From UHGV virus genome UHGV-0033085: DNA of 64,000 nt. The stretch is one strand, 5' to 3'. The position numbers and the translations under genes were made by a program. The notes below the pieces were generated by a model. It was not told the DNA's origin. It saw only the letters and a list, made by a program, of their open reading frames with translations, and ran no database searches. Below, one piece after another: positions 4,015-58,740 of this stretch (position 1 is the first letter of the stretch; every line of letters begins with the position of its first letter). Source of the DNA: a virus.

Positions 4015-4410
4015 ATGACCGTTAAACGCGAAAAACTGACAGTTGATGTTTACTATGCCTCTGAAACCGCCGAAGGTAAGAATGTGGCAAAAATCACCGT
4101 TGTTACGTACAACACCGAAACTGGTGCCGAAGTCCAGGCCAGTACGATCGTGCGTAAAGGTGATGCCTCCGGCGGCGAGTACGCGACTCAATACCAGTCC
4201 ATTCTCGATGCAACTGACCCGCTGCTGCTGAAAATCGAGAACTACTTCCGCCAGGTTGATGAAGAGGTGTTTGAAACCATGATGAGTATGGTTAATTCCG
4301 TATTCACCTCCAGCCTGAACACCAGCACCACCTGGATTGGCCAGTACGGTCTGCGTATTACCTCCGGCATTCCTGCTGACACCTTAATCCCTGAAAGCGT
4401 ATTCGCTTAA
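4015..4410 (+). CDS. hypothetical protein
   Basis: ORF with ACGGAGAG RBS. Confidence 0.55.
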   Translation: MTVKREKLTVDVYYASETAEGKNVAKITVVTYNTETGAEVQASTIVRKGDASGGEYATQYQSILDATDPLLLKIENYFRQVDEEVFETMMSMVNSVFTSSLNTSTTWIGQYGLRITSGIPADTLIPESVFA

Positions 4411-50567: not shown

Positions 50568-51908
50568 ATGACCGAACTTTGCCATACAGGACGCGGGCTG
50601 TCCGAAGAGTTTGATGAAGATTTCCAGAACAGACTGACGGCATATTTTTGTCGTGATCACGAGTTTCTTACTCGTGCGGGAGATCTGGTTGTGCCTAGCC
50701 AATTTGCCAATGCGGCCAATGCCATATTGGTTAATATGGTTTCGGGCTATTACCGTATGTACAAGAGCGCGCCCTCTTCATCTGCAATTCTTGATATGCT
50801 TAAGCGTGCGAAACGCGATAAGACTATCCGTGAGGAACTATTCGCCGATGTTGTTGCTGCGTTTAAGCGCATTCTTGCAGAAAAATTGTCCGATACCTCG
50901 TACATGGTTGACCAGGTATCAACCTTCGCAAAAAGTGTAGCGTTTGATGATGCTCTGATTAAGGCTGCTGAACTGAAAGAGAAAGGCGACTTTCAGGGGG
51001 CGATGGCAATCATGGCCAAGGTTCAGCAGATTGGATCGAACGAAGCGACCGGAATCTATGACTACTACACCTCCGCAAGTGAGCGATTGAAAGCGCGTGA
51101 ATATGAGGCTTCAGAGGAGTATGTGCCAAACAGCATTACAACTGGACTCCCTCTGCTCGATAGGTTGCTGTACCAAAAAGGCTGGGCGAAGCGTGAAATG
51201 GTGCTCTTCATGGGGTTCGCTAAATCCGGTAAATCGACTGCAATGGGTGAATTTTCCATAAACGCAACGCTTGCTGGCTACAATGTTCTGTATCTCTCGC
51301 TGGAGGTTCACACCACCATTTTATCCGACCGTTTTGATGCAAGATTGTCGGAGACAGAAATGTCCAAGCTGGTGGAACGGCGCGATGAGGTTCATCGTAA
51401 GTTGGCAGAGTTGGGAGCCACGAAGGGGATTGGTAGTTTGTGGGTGGTTGAGCGTCCGTCAGGAAGTATGTCACCGGCAGATCTGGACCGTATGCTTAAC
51501 AGCATGAAAGCCAACGGCATGGTGCCTGACATGGTTGTTGTCGACTACGCAGATTTGATGCGTGCCAGTTATGACCTTCGTGATGATCGCGCCAACATTC
51601 GTAGTATCTACACCGATTTACGTGCTCTTTATGACAAGCATAACGTTGCTGGGATCACGGCATCGCAGACAAACCGTGAAGGTGGCGCGTCAGAAGTTGC
51701 CACAATGATGCACGCCGCCGACAACATCGAAAAAGTACGTATTGCTGACCTGGTAATAACGATCAACAAAACCGAAGAAGAAGAAGCGAAAGGAGAGGCT
51801 CGTCTCTACTTTGCCGGTTCACGTAACCAGCAGGGAGGGATCAGCATTCGCGTTAAACAAAACCTCGAACAAATGCGCTTCATTGAGCGAATCTTAGACG
51901 TTACCTAA
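50568..51908 (+). CDS. DnaB-like helicase (RecA-fold ATPase)
   Basis: Walker A GFAKSGKST, Walker B VVVDYADLM; upstream of primase. Confidence 0.7.
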   Translation: MTELCHTGRGLSEEFDEDFQNRLTAYFCRDHEFLTRAGDLVVPSQFANAANAILVNMVSGYYRMYKSAPSSSAILDMLKRAKRDKTIREELFADVVAAFKRILAEKLSDTSYMVDQVSTFAKSVAFDDALIKAAELKEKGDFQGAMAIMAKVQQIGSNEATGIYDYYTSASERLKAREYEASEEYVPNSITTGLPLLDRLLYQKGWAKREMVLFMGFAKSGKSTAMGEFSINATLAGYNVLYLSLEVHTTILSDRFDARLSETEMSKLVERRDEVHRKLAELGATKGIGSLWVVERPSGSMSPADLDRMLNSMKANGMVPDMVVVDYADLMRASYDLRDDRANIRSIYTDLRALYDKHNVAGITASQTNREGGASEVATMMHAADNIEKVRIADLVITINKTEEEEAKGEARLYFAGSRNQQGGISIRVKQNLEQMRFIERILDVT

Positions 51909-51914
51909 AAAATA

Positions 51915-51937
51915 AGCGTGGAGAACACCTCCACGCT
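51915..51937 (+). terminator. hairpin AGCGTGGAG-aacac-CTCCACGCT (attenuator or terminator)
   Basis: Perfect 9-bp stem after helicase stop, weak U-run. Confidence 0.4.
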
Positions 51938-51989
51938 TGATTCATTGGTGAAACAACTTTTCTTTTGCCAAACCACAAAAGAAAAACAC

Positions 51990-53171
51990 ATGAGCCTTTA
52001 TGTTATATCAACATTTAGGTTGGTCACAATATTGCCTGTTAAAAGTGGAATTATCGTGAGCGAGCTGAAAGAGCTAATTACCGAATTAGATTTTGAACAA
52101 TGGTTGGATACTGAAGGTATCGTTTATCGACGTGGAGGCGTGAGTACTCGCGGTCGTGAAGTGAATATCAAGGAGTGTCCGGTATGCGGCAGCTCCAACT
52201 GGAAGGTATATTTCAATCTGACCAGTGGCGTCGGTAAATGCTTCGCTGGTGATCATCCCGAAGAGATTCAGTTCAATAAGCTGGTCTTCCTCAAGCACTA
52301 CAGCGGCAAATCACGACGACAGTTCGAGGAATATGTGCAGAACGCCCTTCTTTCCCAGGGGTGGGCACCAAAGAAAGAAGAGCTAGTGCTTGCAAGCACA
52401 GTCGAGTTAGAGGGGCCAGTTGCACTCCCTCGTCATTACGAGCTTCCTATAGATGGCCGTCTTCCAGACTATCTGGTTGAACGAAACATATCGCCTGAAA
52501 TGGCAAAGTATTTTGACCTACGATACTGCGTCGAAGGCAAGCACGCCTATGTAGATCCGTATACAGATCAGGTTAAAGGACAGATATTCGATATGCGAAT
52601 ACTGATACCGGTTTACGATCTGGATGGGGTAATGAAGACATTTCAGGGACGAGACATTACCGGTACAGCTGAACGTCGCTACCTCTTTCCTATGCAGCTT
52701 CCAGCTTCAGGTAAGTTTCTCTACAACGGCCATAATGCGGTCGGCAAACAGACTGTAGTTGTCTGTGAGGGGGCGTTCGATGTTATGGGGGTTAAACGAG
52801 CTATTTTTGATGAAGAAACATTACGTGATTACGTGGAACCGATAGGAACGTTCGGGATGCATCTATCTGGTAACACCACTCAGGATGCAGAAGATCAGTT
52901 AGGCGCGTTCCTGACGCTCAAGGCGCGTGGGTTACGTAATGTGATCATGATGTGGGATAGTGAAAAGCAAGCTATACGCAACACTATGGCCGCAGCCAGG
53001 CGACTGACCAGTATCGGTCTTAATGTCAAAGTTGCGTGTTTGGGGGAGGAAGGACTCGACCCGGGCGGTGCAACGCCAGAACAAATTATCAAAGCCTATT
53101 ATCGGGCAAAACCGTATACCAAACAGTTGGAGTTGCAAAGCAAGGTTTTGGGCATTAAGGCTATATCGTAA
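51990..53171 (+). CDS. DNA primase (zinc-ribbon plus TOPRIM)
   Basis: CPVCGSSNW...C zinc ribbon and VVVCEGAFDVMGV motif; ORF track start 51918 lies inside the hairpin, so ATG 51990 is preferred. Confidence 0.7.
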   Translation: MSLYVISTFRLVTILPVKSGIIVSELKELITELDFEQWLDTEGIVYRRGGVSTRGREVNIKECPVCGSSNWKVYFNLTSGVGKCFAGDHPEEIQFNKLVFLKHYSGKSRRQFEEYVQNALLSQGWAPKKEELVLASTVELEGPVALPRHYELPIDGRLPDYLVERNISPEMAKYFDLRYCVEGKHAYVDPYTDQVKGQIFDMRILIPVYDLDGVMKTFQGRDITGTAERRYLFPMQLPASGKFLYNGHNAVGKQTVVVCEGAFDVMGVKRAIFDEETLRDYVEPIGTFGMHLSGNTTQDAEDQLGAFLTLKARGLRNVIMMWDSEKQAIRNTMAAARRLTSIGLNVKVACLGEEGLDPGGATPEQIIKAYYRAKPYTKQLELQSKVLGIKAIS

Positions 53172-53185
53172 CAAGTGCCGCCAAA

Positions 53186-53206
53186 ATAAGTAGATGATTA
53201 CTTATC
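53186..53206. promoter_or_regulatory. TAAGTA box, palindrome ATAAGTAGATGATTACTTATC
   Basis: Palindromic family member 40 nt upstream of ATG 53247. Confidence 0.4.
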
Positions 53207-53246
53207 TTTCTGTAAGAATACTTTCATCTGTTAGCTAGGAGTTGGT

Positions 53247-54023
53247 ATGAAAGACGAAATTCACAAATTAGCCTGCGACATCATTGATAAAACTGGTTTA
53301 GAAATCAGCGAGAGCAATCGACTAGACATCATTGAAAAAGCGGTAAAAACAGCAATGGATCATATCGCCACTCGTTTGGTTGAGATCCCGCTACCAGGGC
53401 TACCTTATCTGAAAGTTGAGTTACACGTATGGGGTGAACCTTCTTGTGCACGACGTTCTGCATTAGTTGTTTTTATTAGCAAAGAAAACCCGCTCAGTCT
53501 TAAAGTGCAGGTTGGAGCATGGCTTGATGGCAGAGTGATCTACACAAATACCGTTTTTTGTCTTTCAAACGACGAAACTATTGAAGCGGCCATTCAAGAA
53601 GCAGTTCTAGCAATGCGCAGCAGCGGTTTGATGAAGAATAACTACGAAGAGTACTTGCGTTCGATAAGTGGTGAAAAGACATTATCTCTGAAAGCAGATT
53701 TCGTTACCCCGAAAAATCTGTTGGAAGTCTTGCTTAATAAAGGGGCTAATGATGCCGTAAATGTAATCAGAGAGAGTGAGTATGCGTCTCTTTGCGACAT
53801 GTGCAAAAGCCAGTTGGATCTGGTGCATATCGTTATTGATGCTGGGAAGGCATGTGATGGCGTAATGGCGGAATTTGCTTGGAAGGTGGTCAGGATTGCT
53901 AACGAATTACCGATGATAGAGCAAGAGGCTAAATCATACGCCACCAATCATATCACAGAGCTTCTTGCCCCCTATCGCTTAGAAAGCAATCAGCGCAAGA
54001 TGATTAGCTGGGGAAGTTGGTAA
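53247..54023 (+). CDS. hypothetical protein
   Basis: ORF with GGAG RBS. Confidence 0.5.
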   Translation: MKDEIHKLACDIIDKTGLEISESNRLDIIEKAVKTAMDHIATRLVEIPLPGLPYLKVELHVWGEPSCARRSALVVFISKENPLSLKVQVGAWLDGRVIYTNTVFCLSNDETIEAAIQEAVLAMRSSGLMKNNYEEYLRSISGEKTLSLKADFVTPKNLLEVLLNKGANDAVNVIRESEYASLCDMCKSQLDLVHIVIDAGKACDGVMAEFAWKVVRIANELPMIEQEAKSYATNHITELLAPYRLESNQRKMISWGSW

Positions 54024-54055
54024 TCTCTCCGCGCGTCGTTTTTTACGCAAATAAC

Positions 54056-54067
54056 GATAGGTAAGTA
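54056..54067 (+). promoter_or_regulatory. TAAGTA box (GATAGGTAAGTA)
   Basis: Family member 12 nt upstream of ATG 54079. Confidence 0.4.
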
Positions 54068-54078
54068 CAAGATTATTT

Positions 54079-54561
54079 ATGGCGGTAGTTGTGAAAGCTG
54101 ATTTGTCAAAAATCCCCTCTATTTCAGGAAATAATGGTTATTCACTTCGTTGTGAGGAAGTAAAGATAAACGGTGAGTCGGCATATTGCAGCTACTCCGT
54201 TTGCCAGCACACCATTCTTGCCTTCAAAGAAAACCGTCTTCCTCGAACTTCATTCCAGTCGTGCGCAACCGCTATCAAAGCAGGCAAATGCAAGGCGTTA
54301 AAAATGATGGTTGAAGAGATTCGTAAAGGAGAATCTCTGTATTTCGAAGATATGACCGCGCTCATTAAGGAGGTTGAAGAACAGAATAAACAAGCCAGAA
54401 CTTTAAAACGAAAACGTGACAGTGTAACGATTAATAGCATGGTTAAGAAGAGCACCACATCACAAACAGCGATCACTGACGTGTATGCGGCGTTGCTTGA
54501 AGAAACAACAAAAGAAACACATGAGCAAATCGATCAACATATGGAGGTAAAACAACAATGA
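54079..54561 (+). CDS. hypothetical protein
   Basis: ORF track. Confidence 0.5.
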   Translation: MAVVVKADLSKIPSISGNNGYSLRCEEVKINGESAYCSYSVCQHTILAFKENRLPRTSFQSCATAIKAGKCKALKMMVEEIRKGESLYFEDMTALIKEVEEQNKQARTLKRKRDSVTINSMVKKSTTSQTAITDVYAALLEETTKETHEQIDQHMEVKQQ

Positions 54562-55880
54562 AAAAGTTGATCGCACTTAAGCATAAGCTGGACGAAATGA
54601 AAGCTATGGGCACCAATGCAAAAAAAGAGGCATTGGCCAACATGGATGACTTTGAACAAAGCATGGTTTCATTGATGCTCAACCCTTTCATCCGTTTTGG
54701 GGTAAAGAAATACAAAGTGGCAGAGCCGCTTAGTGAGTCCATCCCAAGTGACGAAAAAGCCATTGATGTACTGAATAAGCTGGCCTCTCGCGAGCTAACG
54801 GGGAACGCAGCAATAGCAGCTGTTGAGTCTATCGTGGCGTCAATGTGCGCCGATGGGCAGGACGTGTTCCGTCGTTTCCTCTTAAAAGACCCGAAAGCTG
54901 GCGTTGGGATTAGCCTATGCAACAAGGTTTTTGAAAATCCCATTCCGAAATTCGAGGTGCAGCTGGCGTCACCGTATAAAGAAAAAGGCGACAAATACCC
55001 CTTCAAGCCAAATCCTAAAGCAAAATGGCCGATGATTGGCAGTCTTAAGCTCGATGGTTTGCGAGTAATTTGCGAGGTTATTGTTGACGAGGAAGAGGTT
55101 AACTTCCTTTCTCGTACTGGTAATCCAATCACGTCTCTCGATCACCTAAAGCCAGCCATGCTCGAATTAGGCAAACTTTCAGGCCACAAACACATCTTCT
55201 TCGATGGTGAAGGAACTGCCGGTTCATTTAACCAGTCCGTATCTGCATTGCGCAAAAAGAACGTGCAGGCAATTGGCGCTATTTATCATGTTTTCGACTT
55301 CTTCCTACCGGAATGGCGAGCACAGGCTAAATCCAAAGAGTATGCAAAGACAGGTATGAAGCTGAAAGAGCGCCTGGCTATGCTGGTGGCGTTGTTCAAA
55401 AACGATCGCAGTGAAGGCTACACACAAGACATTCACCTGCATCCGTTCTATATCATCCATAGCCACGAAGACTTCATCGAACGCTTCATGAAACGCCTGG
55501 ACGATAACGAAGAAGGGGAGATGGGCAAAGATCCGAACTCTGTTTACGAGTTTAAACGTACCCGCAGCTGGTGGAAGTTAAAAGACGAAGATTCAGAAGA
55601 TGGTGAAATTATCGACTTTGAGCCGGGCGACCCGGACTCTGGTTTTGCCAACACACTTGGAAAAATTGTTATTCGTCTTGAAAACGGCGTCATCGTTCGT
55701 GCGAGCGGCATTAAGCATAAATATCTGGATGAGATCTGGAACAACAAAGAGAAGTACCGTGGTCGTATTGTCGAGGTTCATTGTCACGAGAAAACACCGG
55801 ACGGCAGCTTACGCCACCCACGACTGAAATGGCCGCGTTGCTTACGCGATACAGAAGATCGAATCGGAGATAAAGAATGA
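54558..55880 (+). CDS. ATP-dependent DNA ligase
   Basis: Adenylation motif I KLDGLR in GSLKLDGLRVICEV. Confidence 0.8.
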   Translation: MKKLIALKHKLDEMKAMGTNAKKEALANMDDFEQSMVSLMLNPFIRFGVKKYKVAEPLSESIPSDEKAIDVLNKLASRELTGNAAIAAVESIVASMCADGQDVFRRFLLKDPKAGVGISLCNKVFENPIPKFEVQLASPYKEKGDKYPFKPNPKAKWPMIGSLKLDGLRVICEVIVDEEEVNFLSRTGNPITSLDHLKPAMLELGKLSGHKHIFFDGEGTAGSFNQSVSALRKKNVQAIGAIYHVFDFFLPEWRAQAKSKEYAKTGMKLKERLAMLVALFKNDRSEGYTQDIHLHPFYIIHSHEDFIERFMKRLDDNEEGEMGKDPNSVYEFKRTRSWWKLKDEDSEDGEIIDFEPGDPDSGFANTLGKIVIRLENGVIVRASGIKHKYLDEIWNNKEKYRGRIVEVHCHEKTPDGSLRHPRLKWPRCLRDTEDRIGDKE

Positions 55881-56056
55881 TGCTCGGCTGGATGATTGCA
55901 TTTTTAGCAGTTGGTTTTTTCATAGGTATTGTGGTGATGTCCAGTTGCATCAATGACTACATTAAAAGCGGTGTTATAGAAAGACGCGGTCGTATTTATC
56001 GCATTGTAGAAATAACCAACACCCTGAAGGAGATTAAGGATGATCGTATTAAGTAA
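55877..56056 (+). CDS. small single-TM membrane protein (59 aa)
   Basis: Not in ORF track; ATGA overlap with ligase stop; paralogous to 56252..56404. Confidence 0.4.
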   Translation: MMLGWMIAFLAVGFFIGIVVMSSCINDYIKSGVIERRGRIYRIVEITNTLKEIKDDRIK

Positions 56057-56255
56057 ACGGGAGAAGGAAACGCTTCATGAAATCAGTAAGTGGCCGGAGT
56101 TCCCTGAGTACTGGAAGCCTAAAACGCGAGCTAAGTTAGAGCGTTTAGGGTTGGTTGCAAACGTTTCTGAAACGTGGTGTTCGGCCAACTACCAGTTAAC
56201 TGATAAAGGGAAAGTATTGCTACAGCAATTAGTAGAATCAGGAGCGTTAAAATGA
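56040..56255 (+). CDS. hypothetical small protein
   Basis: ORF track; GGAG RBS; translationally coupled. Confidence 0.45.
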   Translation: MIVLSKREKETLHEISKWPEFPEYWKPKTRAKLERLGLVANVSETWCSANYQLTDKGKVLLQQLVESGALK

Positions 56256-56404
56256 TTCCATACATCTCATTAGCTTTTATGGGTGGCTTCCTTATCGGCT
56301 TCGGCATCTGTCGTGATTTAATTAAGCAGGAACTTAAAACCAAAACACTGTGCATCGGAAAGCGTGTGTATCGGGTAGTTCATGAAACAAAGGTGAAAAA
56401 ATGA
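56252..56404 (+). CDS. small single-TM membrane protein (50 aa)
   Basis: Not in ORF track; ATGA overlaps at both ends; shares the G(K/R)R(I/V)YR(I/V)V motif with 55877..56056. Confidence 0.4.
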   Translation: MIPYISLAFMGGFLIGFGICRDLIKQELKTKTLCIGKRVYRVVHETKVKK

Positions 56405-56691
56405 GCAATTTAACTTCTTGGGAATGGTGGTTGGCCACCTATTTCTTAGCGGCCGGAGTCGCATTCGCCTTTTACGTAGGTCAGTTAGTCGTAAAACTGT
56501 TGCTGATTAAATTTGCTAGTCATAAACGTATCGATGATGGTCTGTGGCGTCTTGGCACCCTGGTGGAAACTCGCTACGGGCAACTTAAGGAGAACGAAAC
56601 CATTACTATCCAAGCGAAACGATTCACTGCCACCATTACAAGAACACCTAGTCGTAGAGTGGCCTTGATCAAAAAAGTCACAACCGAATAA
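56401..56691 (+). CDS. membrane protein (N-terminal TM helix)
   Basis: ORF track; ATGA-coupled. Confidence 0.45.
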   Translation: MSNLTSWEWWLATYFLAAGVAFAFYVGQLVVKLLLIKFASHKRIDDGLWRLGTLVETRYGQLKENETITIQAKRFTATITRTPSRRVALIKKVTTE

Positions 56692-56700
56692 AAACATATT

Positions 56701-56722
56701 GATAAGTATTTACTTACTTATC
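56701..56722. promoter_or_regulatory. TAAGTA box, palindrome GATAAGTA-tttact-TACTTATC
   Basis: Perfect 8-bp arms at the start of the non-coding tRNA region. Confidence 0.4.
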
Positions 56723-56896
56723 TTTTGTGTATAAGATGACTTTGTTTTCGTTGAGACGCGACTGTTTGAACTTAAATACAAGTGCAAACGAAGAAGTCTA
56801 TCTGGCAGTAGCCTAATAAGCCAAACACCAGCGAGGTCAGTTTCCAGCCTCGTTACCGAAATGGGACACACTGAGCGAGTGTGATTGCAGAACGCA

Positions 56897-56920
56897 GGAG
56901 GGAACATTCATGTTCCCTCC
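56897..56920. repeat. perfect 24-bp palindrome GGAGGGAACATtcATGTTCCCTCC
   Basis: 11-bp perfect arms; contains SD-like AGGAGG plus ATG in both orientations. Confidence 0.7.
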
Positions 56921-57081
56921 GATGAAGTAACAGAATGGGCGGTTGGTATATTTTCAACTCCATATGACTCCCGGATTCTTAGCCACTGACCGCCCATCCT
57001 GTTACGTCATTTTGTTCAATTATGTCGTTTATACTGGGTTAAAAAGCGGCGACGTAGCCCGGCTGGTATGGTTAGCCAGCA

Positions 57082-57203
57082 CACAACGTTGAGGCCATTA
57101 CATTTTTATCAATTCTAAGGTTCTATTCACAGAGATACCGGCGAGCGTTGATATGTAACATGTTGGGCAAACATTCAATCGGAGTAGTGGCCTCAACGTT
57201 GTG
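57082..57203 (+). repeat. long stem-loop element A (CACAACGTTGAGGCC ... GGCCTCAACGTTGTG)
   Basis: 15-bp perfect inverted repeat around about 92 nt, upstream of tRNA-Asn. Confidence 0.6.
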
Positions 57204-57469
57204 AAGACAGGATTGTTGTGTAGGTTTAACCACTGTTGCCATTGGTGCCTGTTTTCACAACAAATGATTCCATACATCACATTGTATAAATTACAAAGTA
57301 GGTGCTGTCCTCAGAAACATCATCTACTTAAAGATTTTGCCTTCTACTATTGAGCGAAGTCGAAAGCGTCTGGCACTAACGAAAAGTGCAAGTAGCGGTG
57401 CGTTTCCTGGCAGAAACTAAACCGTCGCGATTGGCACTGTTGAGTAATAAATACTGGCAGTGCTGAATT

Positions 57470-57544
57470 GATGGTGTAGCTCAGCGGTAGAGCAGTTGGC
57501 TGTTAACCAACTGGTCGGTGGTTCGAATCCACCCACCATCGCCA
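57470..57544 (+). tRNA. tRNA-Asn (anticodon GTT)
   Basis: Cloverleaf folded by hand: 7-bp acceptor, GCTC/GAGC D-stem, GTTGG/CCAAC anticodon stem, loop CTGTTAA, TTCGAAT T-loop, encoded CCA. Confidence 0.85.
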
Positions 57545-57549
57545 ATTTA

Positions 57550-57636
57550 GGGGAGTTAGTCCGTAGAGGTAGCGGTGTAGACTGTAAATCTACTGTCATG
57601 GCGACTCGGGTGGTTCGACTCCATCACTCCCCACCA
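57550..57636 (+). tRNA. tRNA-Tyr (anticodon GTA), type II
   Basis: Acceptor GGGGAGT/ACTCCCC, anticodon stem GTAGA/TCTAC with loop CTGTAAA, long variable arm, TTCGACT T-loop, encoded CCA. Confidence 0.8.
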
Positions 57637-57640
57637 AATT

Positions 57641-57716
57641 GCCGGTTTAGCTCAGTTGGTAGAGCGCCTGCCTTGTAAGCAGGATGTCAGCGGTTCGAGT
57701 CCGTTAACCGGCACCA
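57641..57716 (+). tRNA. tRNA-Thr (anticodon TGT)
   Basis: Acceptor GCCGGTT/AACCGGC, GCTC/GAGC D-stem, anticodon stem CCTGC/GCAGG with loop CTTGTAA, TTCGAGT T-loop, CCA. Confidence 0.85.
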
Positions 57717-57717
57717 A

Positions 57718-57806
57718 CACAACAGGTAAGTGCATTGGGCGAATCGGCGATACTGACCCACAAGCCCGTAAATCGATAGAGTCAGACCAGTGCTCTTACC
57801 GTTGTG
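57718..57806 (+). repeat. long stem-loop element C (CACAACAGGTAAG ... CTTACCGTTGTG)
   Basis: 12-bp arms around about 64 nt, immediately after tRNA-Thr. Confidence 0.55.
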
Positions 57807-57857
57807 AGGAAGTGCAGCTCTTTGAGGCAACCAGAAGATAAGCATCTGGCTTCACAA

Positions 57858-57936
57858 CACAACGATAAGATCATTACGGTTAATCGTCGTTCATGTGCAC
57901 AATGACTGGTCGAAAGGTAGTGATCTTACCGTTGTG
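57858..57936 (+). repeat. long stem-loop element D (CACAACGATAAGA ... TCTTACCGTTGTG)
   Basis: 13-bp arms with one mismatch around about 53 nt. Confidence 0.55.
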
Positions 57937-58080
57937 GTGGATTCGCAGACTGATGCGATAGCTTTCTTGGATGTTAGGGAAATGCGGCCGCAAATCTTCC
58001 CTTTCGCGAGCGGTGATCGTCCGTAGTCCTAATTGGCTGCACCGTATGCCGGAGATTCAGTACCGGCCACCACAACGGCC

Positions 58081-58167
58081 GGAGAGTAGGGAGCATGGTG
58101 CTCAAGCGGTCTTGAAAACCGTCCCATTGCGCAAGCGATGATGGTTCGATTCCATTACTCTCCGCCA
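58081..58167 (+). tRNA. tRNA-Ser (anticodon TGA), type II
   Basis: Acceptor GGAGAGT/ACTCTCC, anticodon stem GCGGT/ACCGT with loop CTTGAAA, 17-nt variable arm, TTCGATT T-loop, discriminator G, CCA. Confidence 0.8.
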
Positions 58168-58169
58168 GA

Positions 58170-58247
58170 CACAGCGTTGAGCGGTTTGGCCTTTTAATCA
58201 CCCAGATTAAGACTCCGCTAACATAAACCAGACCGCTCAACGCTGTG
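58170..58247 (+). repeat. long stem-loop element B (CACAGCGTTGAGCGGT ... ACCGCTCAACGCTGTG)
   Basis: 16-bp perfect arms around a 46-nt loop, directly after tRNA-Ser. Confidence 0.6.
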
Positions 58248-58389
58248 ATAGACAATTACGGCAGACGTTCTTAACCATAGCTTGCTAACATCCTAGCAAC
58301 ACTTTTTTTCAGCGCAAAATTCAAAGGGGCTTCGGCCACTTTTTTTGCAACTGAAAGAGTCAAGTCTACGAACTTTGTAGGAAGAAATA

Positions 58390-58740
58390 ATGACCAGCAA
58401 AGAGAACACACCACTAAAAGTCACCCCTGAACACATTGAACAACTCATTCAAAGTGAACATTATTTCACTGCATATGATGCCAGCCACGGGGATAACTTC
58501 ATCTCTGTTTACAATTCAAAAACAGATATCGACAAAGGTCATGAGTCGTTAAAACTCTTAACGTTCTGCGTTATGGTTCTCAAAAATGGATATACCGTAA
58601 CGGGAAAATCTGCGTGCGTAAGACCAGAAATCTTCAATTTTGATGTTGGTCGCGAGTACGCTCGAAAAGATGCTATCGATCAAATCTGGCCCCTGGAAGG
58701 CTATCTCCTGAAGCAAAAGTGGCATGAGGCAAAGCAATGA
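58390..58740 (+). CDS. hypothetical phage protein (N4 gp49-like, tentative)
   Basis: ORF with GGAAG RBS; C-terminal ...IWPLEGYLLKQ block. Confidence 0.45.
   Translation: MTSKENTPLKVTPEHIEQLIQSEHYFTAYDASHGDNFISVYNSKTDIDKGHESLKLLTFCVMVLKNGYTVTGKSACVRPEIFNFDVGREYARKDAIDQIWPLEGYLLKQKWHEAKQ

Follow-up and report, generated by a model that had tools for sequence, protein, structure and literature searches.

Small membrane proteins are encoded among the replication genes of both phi29 and T4. The phi29 proteins p16.7 and p1 are small, early, non-essential and membrane-anchored, and p16.7 combines a transmembrane (TM) segment and a coiled coil with a C-terminal nucleic-acid-binding part; the T4 genes imm and sp are also found among the replication genes. 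Here, we analysed a run of four small genes in a 64,000-nt stretch of the virus genome UHGV-0033085 (below, the window means this whole stretch). A sequence-only reading had described positions 55877–56691 as a translationally coupled run of small membrane proteins, including a paralogous single-TM pair, downstream of a DNA ligase gene, and had suggested superinfection-exclusion factors, holin-like proteins or membrane-depolarising toxins. The structural part of this description holds: the open reading frames (ORFs) lie exactly where they had been placed, the preceding gene encodes a ligase of PHROG 114, and the run does contain a paralogous single-TM pair. The genes and their junctions are as follows (window positions, strand in brackets):

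54558–55880 (+): ATP-dependent DNA ligase, 440 amino acids (aa); PHROG 114, E = 8e-126; the small-gene run is coupled to this gene
55877–55880 (+): ligase/P59 stop/start overlap, ATGA; a −4 or −1 junction in relatives
55877–56056 (+): P59, predicted bitopic membrane protein of 59 aa; PHROG 4381, E = 1e-39
56040–56056 (+): P59/P71 overlap of 17 nt, not ATGA; the AGGAG Shine-Dalgarno sequence of P71 lies within the P59 coding sequence (CDS)
56040–56255 (+): P71, predicted soluble protein of 71 aa; PHROG 4054, E = 1e-45
56252–56255 (+): P71/P50 overlap, ATGA; −4 or −1 in relatives
56252–56404 (+): P50, predicted bitopic membrane protein of 50 aa, paralog of P59; PHROG 6302, E = 1e-36
56401–56404 (+): P50/P96 overlap, ATGA; the most invariant junction, nearly always −4
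56401–56691 (+): P96, predicted bitopic membrane protein of 96 aa; PHROG 4507, E = 2e-58

All four genes had been said to overlap by ATGA; this is true of the ligase/P59, P71/P50 and P50/P96 junctions, whereas P59 and P71 overlap by 17 nt. The junction types are kept across 87 loci, where the P59/P71 junction is −17 or −14. Every start codon has a conserved GGAG, AGGAG or AGGT motif 5–9 nt on its 5′ side, located inside the preceding CDS; the Shine-Dalgarno sequence of P59 is a conserved GGAG. The second ATG (55880, in a TGATG junction) serves as the P59 start in 27 of 68 relatives, and RefSeq makes the same call; since many relatives have this second ATG only, the conserved P59 product is 58 aa long. 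That the four proteins are made by translational coupling appears to be nearly certain.

The 951 nt around the small-gene block are 98.6% identical to Escherichia phage Cyrano, which is pLF82, an SSU5-like phage-plasmid; the same 951 nt are approximately 75% identical to Salmonella phage SSU5 and approximately 69% identical to Klebsiella phage-plasmids, and the block itself is 100% identical to the E. coli plasmid p4_0.2. Judged by these identities, the window represents an E. coli phage-plasmid of the SSU5-like type. The gene order in Cyrano is helicase, primase, two hypothetical genes, ligase, small genes, tRNAs, glutaredoxin, integrase and repressor, and the annotation “DNA ligase” is common to Cyrano, SSU5 and p4_0.2. 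We are highly confident in describing the small genes as the promoter-distal end of a replication-gene operon that comprises the helicase, the primase, two unknown genes and the ligase. No sigma-70-like promoter site was found in the 7 kb at window positions 51500–58500, where dinucleotide shuffles give 10.0 ± 2.7 such sites, which is consistent with a long operon or a phage-specific promoter type. As such, this promoter-poor stretch suggests that internal promoters are selected against in the replication module, or that the module relies on promoters of another type.

The Kyte-Doolittle maxima over 19 residues are 2.55 for P59, 1.84 for P50, 2.00 for P96 and only 0.33 for P71. P59, P50 and P96 have no charged residues, including lysine or arginine (K/R), in the N-terminal flank and 9–13 K/R in the C-terminal part, so that all K/R lie C-terminal of the TM segment and the positive-inside rule predicts an N-out/C-in orientation with essentially no periplasmic exposure. 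Hydropathy and charge thus make P96 a third bitopic protein and P71 a soluble one, as predicted from these two properties. In P59, the TM segment covers approximately aa 3–25 with G13xxxG17, and the basic tail, predicted to be cytoplasmic, contains R39-I-Y-R-I-V44 (nt 55991–56008); the conserved parts of its family are the N-terminal MMLGWM, SSC-x-NDY and RRGRIYRIV[DE]IT. In P50, the TM segment covers approximately aa 2–20, also with GxxxG, and R38–V43 correspond to nt 56363–56380; in the P50 family the TM segment varies, while the predicted cytoplasmic tail LKTKTLRIGKRVYRVVHET is nearly invariant (alignment A2). The AlphaFold2 (AF2) model of P59 is a long helix without a compact fold (predicted local distance difference test, pLDDT, 70). 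P59 as a lipoprotein, a candidate considered for its conserved SSC, was rejected by inspection: the n-region has no K/R, the lipobox is poor, and the cysteine is not present in P50.

At the sequence level, the paralogy of P59 and P50 is established. The two proteins share 31% identity over 45 aa in BLASTP, a shuffle test preserving the TM and tail segments gives p = 0.0013, and hhalign joins the two families with E = 1.2e-5 (81% probability). Their joint alignment is gapless and collinear, with R39, Y41 and R42 invariant and G13 and G17 of the GxxxG near-invariant. Moreover, intermediates match both families: P0117 with 32 bits (P59) and 50 bits (P50), and P0121 with 33 and 36 bits, respectively. 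Together with the hydropathy of both proteins, these results bear out the proposed paralogous single-TM pair. The motif by which the pair had been recognised, G(K/R)R(I/V)YR(I/V)V(E/H)(I/T)T, is slightly off, as P59 reads RGRIYRIVEIT and P50 reads GKRVYRVVHET, but both share the core R-[IV]-Y-R-[IV]-V. An exhaustive profile search of 1.84 billion representatives returned only 24 proteins, and all those looked up are encoded on Enterobacterales contigs of approximately 105–113 kb; we consider the family to be confined to SSU5-like elements. A PDB profile search with the P59/P50 family gave noise only.

P71 is probably a winged helix, to judge from matches all of which are below threshold: 11 of 13 orthologs match Pfam HTH_45 below threshold, with a best E of 0.006 (the window P71 scores 12.5 bits vs. 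a cutoff of 25.5), and weaker matches are found to the Csa3 winged helix-turn-helix of PADLOC (E = 0.0015) and to MarR 2rdp (E = 0.21). P96 has an N-terminal TM segment, a long helix and a basic C-terminus; its AF2 model comprises a helix over residues 6–61 and a hairpin, which is basic, over residues 67–80 (pLDDT 66), and a weak match to the tetrabrachion coiled coil was obtained (E = 0.5). PDB profile searches with P71 and P96 gave noise only. P96 as a third paralog, considered because of a by-eye likeness of DGLWRL to GRIYRI, was rejected, as BLASTP, hhalign against alignments A1 and A2, and shuffle tests were all non-significant; a kinship of P71 with the soluble part of P96 was rejected as well (hhalign E = 0.36). 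In RefSeq, the name “C-type natriuretic protein” is widely attached to P96 orthologs. No family behind this name was found in Pfam or NCBIfam, and it looks like a propagated misannotation; literature searches gave nothing useful on “C-type natriuretic protein” in phages or on YPMT1 locus tags, and neither did the Klebsiella p2 plasmid paper.

When compared to phi29 p16.7 and p1, the proteins of the window resemble them in being small and at least partly dispensable, in the predicted N-terminal TM anchor and in being encoded together with early replication genes, and the TM segment, long helix and basic hairpin modelled for P96 resemble the plan of p16.7. They differ in that there is no sequence similarity or demonstrated fold similarity, that the host is Gram-negative, and that P59 and P50 are much shorter.

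The ratio of nonsynonymous to synonymous substitution rates (dN/dS), calculated for the window vs. relatives with synonymous sites near saturation, is 0.05–0.19 for P59, approximately 0.07–0.10 for P71, 0.06–0.5 for P50 (gapless comparisons) and 0.07–0.11 for P96, with 0.02–0.04 for the ligase. By this measure all four ORFs are under purifying selection. Each of the four proteins matches a PHROG of unknown function over its full length (E from 1e-36 to 2e-58), and frames and lengths are kept in the 87 loci. The block is present in 752 PLSDB plasmids from Klebsiella, Escherichia, Enterobacter, Salmonella, Yersinia, Citrobacter and Cronobacter. In Y. pestis pMT1, all four small genes lie between an IS100 copy and caf1R: IS100 is upstream of the block, a ligase CDS is not listed there, and the caf operon replaces the downstream part. 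The genes are already annotated as encoding hypothetical proteins (SSU5_045–048, pJN2-26 0094–0097 and RefSeq WP_ entries), although P59 was not called in the Cyrano annotation.

Natural variants show which genes can be lost. In 13 of the 87 loci, all E. coli-type (L015–L018, L021, L022, L024, L025, L028, L034, L036, L037 and L042, at approximately 2630–2650), exactly P59 is missing: two ATGAT start contexts are joined, and the ligase stop overlaps the P71 start. The deletion comprises 163 bp between the imperfect 16-nt repeats GGAGAT[AT]AAG[AG]ATGAT (window 55877–56044) and preserves the ligase–P71 coupling. Given this clean deletion in nature, P59 is dispensable. A distant K. oxytoca lineage possesses the ligase and P71-like, P50-like and P96-like genes without P59, and P59 is thus an extra copy. 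In some Klebsiella elements P50 and P96 remain, but P59, P71 and most of the ligase gene are gone. From these comparisons, P50–P96 is the persistent core. A more damaged block is found in the KPC-carrying Klebsiella phage vB_Kpn_1825-KPC53 (L004, 3078–3500), where P59 has an in-frame TM loss (MMLSCINDY...), a foreign sequence interrupts P50 after residue 34, and most of P96 is missing. Taken together, we have very little doubt about the descriptive picture of three bitopic inner-membrane proteins, two of them paralogous, and a probable winged-helix protein, which are silent in the lysogen (see below), partly dispensable and restricted to SSU5-like elements.

Directly after P96, a conserved structured non-coding RNA gene is located at window positions 56709–57280 (+). 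Two features stand out in it:

56709–56737 (+): promoter-like TTTACT-N17-TAAGAT, starting 18 nt after the P96 stop, in invariant columns of alignment A6
56784–56819 (+): tag frame ANEEVYLAVA followed by two stops, GCA AAC GAA GAA GTC TAT CTG GCA GTA GCC TAA TAA

The TTTACT-N17-TAAGAT motif, which was read by eye and is below the threshold of the promoter scanner, recurs with the same spacing in the distant lineage L090 (K. oxytoca pCAV1015-111); it may mark where the operon ends and a separate RNA gene begins. The approximately 400–590 nt after P96 are non-coding yet better conserved than the small genes (77–82% vs. 69–75%). With 14 divergent loci, RNAalifold predicted 101 base pairs, including a hairpin at 56887–56910 with five compensatory pairs and a 26-bp helix at 56911–57000 with three; more than 12 G–U pairs are invariant on the + strand. 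In a covariation control the observed level was reached in 0 of 500 shuffles, and the minimum free energy z-score of the RNA is −6.5.

The tag frame, noticed via weak Rfam matches to transfer-messenger RNA (tmRNA), reads ANEDTYLAVA and ANDNQYLAVA in relatives and ANDNVVLMAA in the distant lineage; the E. coli ssrA tag, for comparison, is ANDENYALAA. It shows synonymous changes at codons 6 and 10 and no indels, and its stop codons lie inside a hairpin loop (A6 columns 104–124). Hence several traits of a tmRNA tag are present: no in-frame start codon in most lineages, alanine as the first codon, a hydrophobic A-x-A end and a stop in a hairpin loop. BLASTN against E. coli ssrA found similarity across the tag region only (32/47 nt). 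The best Rfam score, 30 bits (E = 5e-4, gathering threshold 47), was obtained with the model tmRNA_permuted on L090, and the scores in the window are 14–17 bits. ARAGORN detected no tmRNA, neither in the window nor in any of 17 relatives, and at a relaxed threshold of 60% it returned only noise-level candidates with implausible tRNA domains; a tRNA-like domain (acceptor stem, T-arm, CCA end) was not found in the downstream RNA of the window and relatives. GOLLD and ROOL, known large RNAs near phage tRNA islands (PMC12286853), gave no Rfam match at E ≤ 10, and in the searchable literature we found no link of tmRNA with SSU5, pHCM2 or pMT1.

Beyond the RNA, a tRNA cluster with Asn(GUU), Tyr(GUA), Thr(UGU) and Ser(UGA) lies at window positions 57470–57716 and 58081–58167 (+). 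In the window and in 15 of 17 relatives scanned, tRNA-Asn is found downstream of the RNA, 0.7–0.8 kb after the P96 stop. The tRNA-Ser of the window scores 46.6 bits on the Rfam tRNA-Sec model, whose gathering threshold is 47. At the position of this cluster, L090 bears two tRNA-like sequences (approximately 4108–4190 and 4230–4358) with a T-arm, an acceptor 3′ strand and an encoded CCA, which ARAGORN did not call. In Y. pestis KIM10+ pMT-1 (L087, 3503–4832), the four small genes and approximately 500 nt of the tag-RNA region are followed directly by caf1R. In the metagenomic protein P0104, the first approximately 60 residues of P96 are joined to the C-terminal part of a Gp49/PF13876 protein (window 58390–58740), which implies that the element in question has lost the RNA gene and the tRNAs by deletion.

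As to the role of the small proteins, three observations favour accessory proteins of the lytic phase with the tails as the working part. First, the holin-endolysin-Rz-Rz1 cassette of Cyrano (CYRAN_22–25) is located approximately 10.5 kb upstream of the block, which places the small genes outside a lysis context. Second, no sigma-70-like promoter site was found around the block. Third, in RNA-seq data for the LF82 lysogen grown in LB, the ligase and the three annotated small genes (CYRAN_36–39) have values of 5.0–7.6 on a scale with a floor of 4.99 (PMC9928086 S1 Table); they are not on the list of lysogen-expressed “moron” genes, and P59 is unannotated in that data set (PMC9928086). In other conditions of the table the values of CYRAN_36–39 are modestly higher (PMC9928086 S1 Table). 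In columns B6 and MB1, log2(FPKM+5) (fragments per kilobase of transcript per million mapped reads) is approximately 4.4–6.3 for the three small genes and approximately 3.9–4.3 for the ligase (PMC9928086 S1 Table); this gap hints at an internal start or at mRNAs that differ in stability, or it may reflect noisy counts for short genes.

Our tentative proposal, by analogy with phi29 p16.7 and p1 and held with considerable reserve, is that the small proteins could anchor a cytoplasmic partner at the inner membrane in the course of lytic replication. The TM helices would serve mainly as anchors and oligomerisation modules, and the conserved tails would recruit the partner to the inner membrane face in lytic or replicative development. 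The most plausible partner would be the interleaved winged-helix protein P71 and, through P71, the phage DNA, thereby giving the block an accessory membrane-tethering role in replication. The proposal is supported by the position of the block directly after helicase, primase and ligase, by the nearly invariant tail of P50 next to a variable TM segment, by the GxxxG kept in both paralog families, by the P71 gene lying between the paralogs with a 17-nt overlap with P59, by the p16.7-like plan of the P96 model and by the silence in the lysogen. Several points weigh against it: searches revealed no homology of the proteins to p16.7, p1 or any characterised protein; the P59 and P50 tails are only 25–35 aa long, and AF2 models both proteins as single helices with low confidence; the winged-helix matches of P71 stay below threshold; and P59 alone, or ligase, P59 and P71 together, are lost in natural elements where P50 and P96 stay, so that P50 and P96 do not strictly need P71.

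None of the roles suggested for the block at the outset gained positive support. Exclusion was among them, and the silence in the LF82 lysogen argues against superinfection exclusion of the prophage type. A lytic-phase variant in the manner of T4 Imm/Sp, where early membrane proteins block the DNA entry of a secondary phage, fares better, although we regard it as unlikely. Small membrane proteins do lie inside the early replication cluster, as T4 imm and sp do, and the duplicated, variably lost P59 copy fits an arms-race accessory gene. However, the proteins have no homology to Imm/Sp, PADLOC gave no match for P59, P50 or P96, and no exclusion match was found in PADLOC or PHROG; a silent lysogen would be left unprotected. 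Sp acts in the periplasm, whereas the proteins here expose essentially nothing there according to the prediction, and the predicted N-out/C-in orientation, together with P50 conservation in the cytoplasmic tail, makes them a poor fit to periplasm-facing injection blockers.

In a further reading, which seems equally doubtful, the proteins would modulate host inner-membrane proteins in the manner of AcrZ, MgrB and SgrT, with a GxxxG TM segment docking on a transporter, sensor, protease or divisome component of the host and the tail altering its activity in the course of host takeover. In size (30–60 aa in that class), single TM segment, predicted N-out/C-in bitopic plan (the C-terminus is cytoplasmic in some of the class) and the GxxxG of P59/P50 they match it, and their genes are dispensable and lineage-restricted. 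Here, however, the proteins are phage-encoded and operon-coupled, with no homology to known small regulators, and the poorly conserved TM segment of P50 next to its invariant tail suggests an interface in the cytoplasm rather than within the membrane.

An extended form of the tethering proposal, in which P59, P50, P96 and P71 would make up one membrane-bound complex positioning phage-plasmid nucleic acid at the inner membrane in lytic development, appears to us rather improbable as it stands; the nucleic acid could be DNA undergoing replication, or else what the neighbouring tmRNA-like RNA/tRNA cluster produces.

That the proteins are holins, antiholins or membrane-depolarising toxins, as the sequence-only reading had also suggested, is very improbable. 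The single TM segment and highly charged C-terminus bear a superficial resemblance to holins and to type I toxins such as Hok/Gef and TisB, which are short hydrophobic peptides with a charged C-terminus; a TM segment with a charged, predicted cytoplasmic C-terminus is not specific to holins, though. The phage has its complete lysis cassette elsewhere, none of the four proteins matches a holin family in PHROGs or Pfam, and Pfam, NCBIfam and PDB gave no family match, toxin families included, above threshold for the small proteins. The stand-alone layout of type I toxins is not seen either: each gene shares 4 or 17 nt with the next one, in a run of five that is coupled to early replication genes, and the small genes have neither a promoter of their own nor an antisense RNA.

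Just as improbable is a partnership in which the membrane proteins would work with the downstream tmRNA-like RNA and tRNAs, for instance by localising or regulating a ribosome-rescue or translation module. Synteny of P50, P96, the RNA and tRNA-Asn is seen in nearly every lineage, even where ligase, P59 and P71 are missing, pMT1 keeps the four genes with the first approximately 500 nt of the RNA region, and basic tails could bind RNA; but this is synteny alone, the RNA has its own promoter-like motif, and no RNA-binding domain was detected in the proteins. Finally, the explanation that the small ORFs are chance untranslated frames, which the short products and their omission from some annotations (P59 in Cyrano) might suggest, retains next to no probability, being effectively refuted by the conservation data: dN/dS well below 1, frames and lengths kept in 87 loci, conserved Shine-Dalgarno sequences and full-length PHROG matches.

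Clinical Enterobacteriaceae commonly carry SSU5-like phage-plasmids (752 plasmid records), a group to which Y. pestis pMT1 belongs, and the accessory genes of these elements are almost entirely uncharacterised. By itself the small-gene block is ordinary, consisting of already-annotated hypothetical phage membrane proteins of modest interest; at the same time it is compact and tractable, a lineage-restricted family of predicted membrane-tethered peptides with natural knock-outs for comparison. The downstream RNA may be more interesting than the block: if functional, it would mean that a widespread phage-plasmid family interferes with ribosome rescue or supplies it. If the membrane-bound complex proposed above were true, it would represent a phi29-type membrane organiser in Gram-negative phage-plasmids, including those of the Y. 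pestis pMT1 and S. Typhi pHCM2 type.

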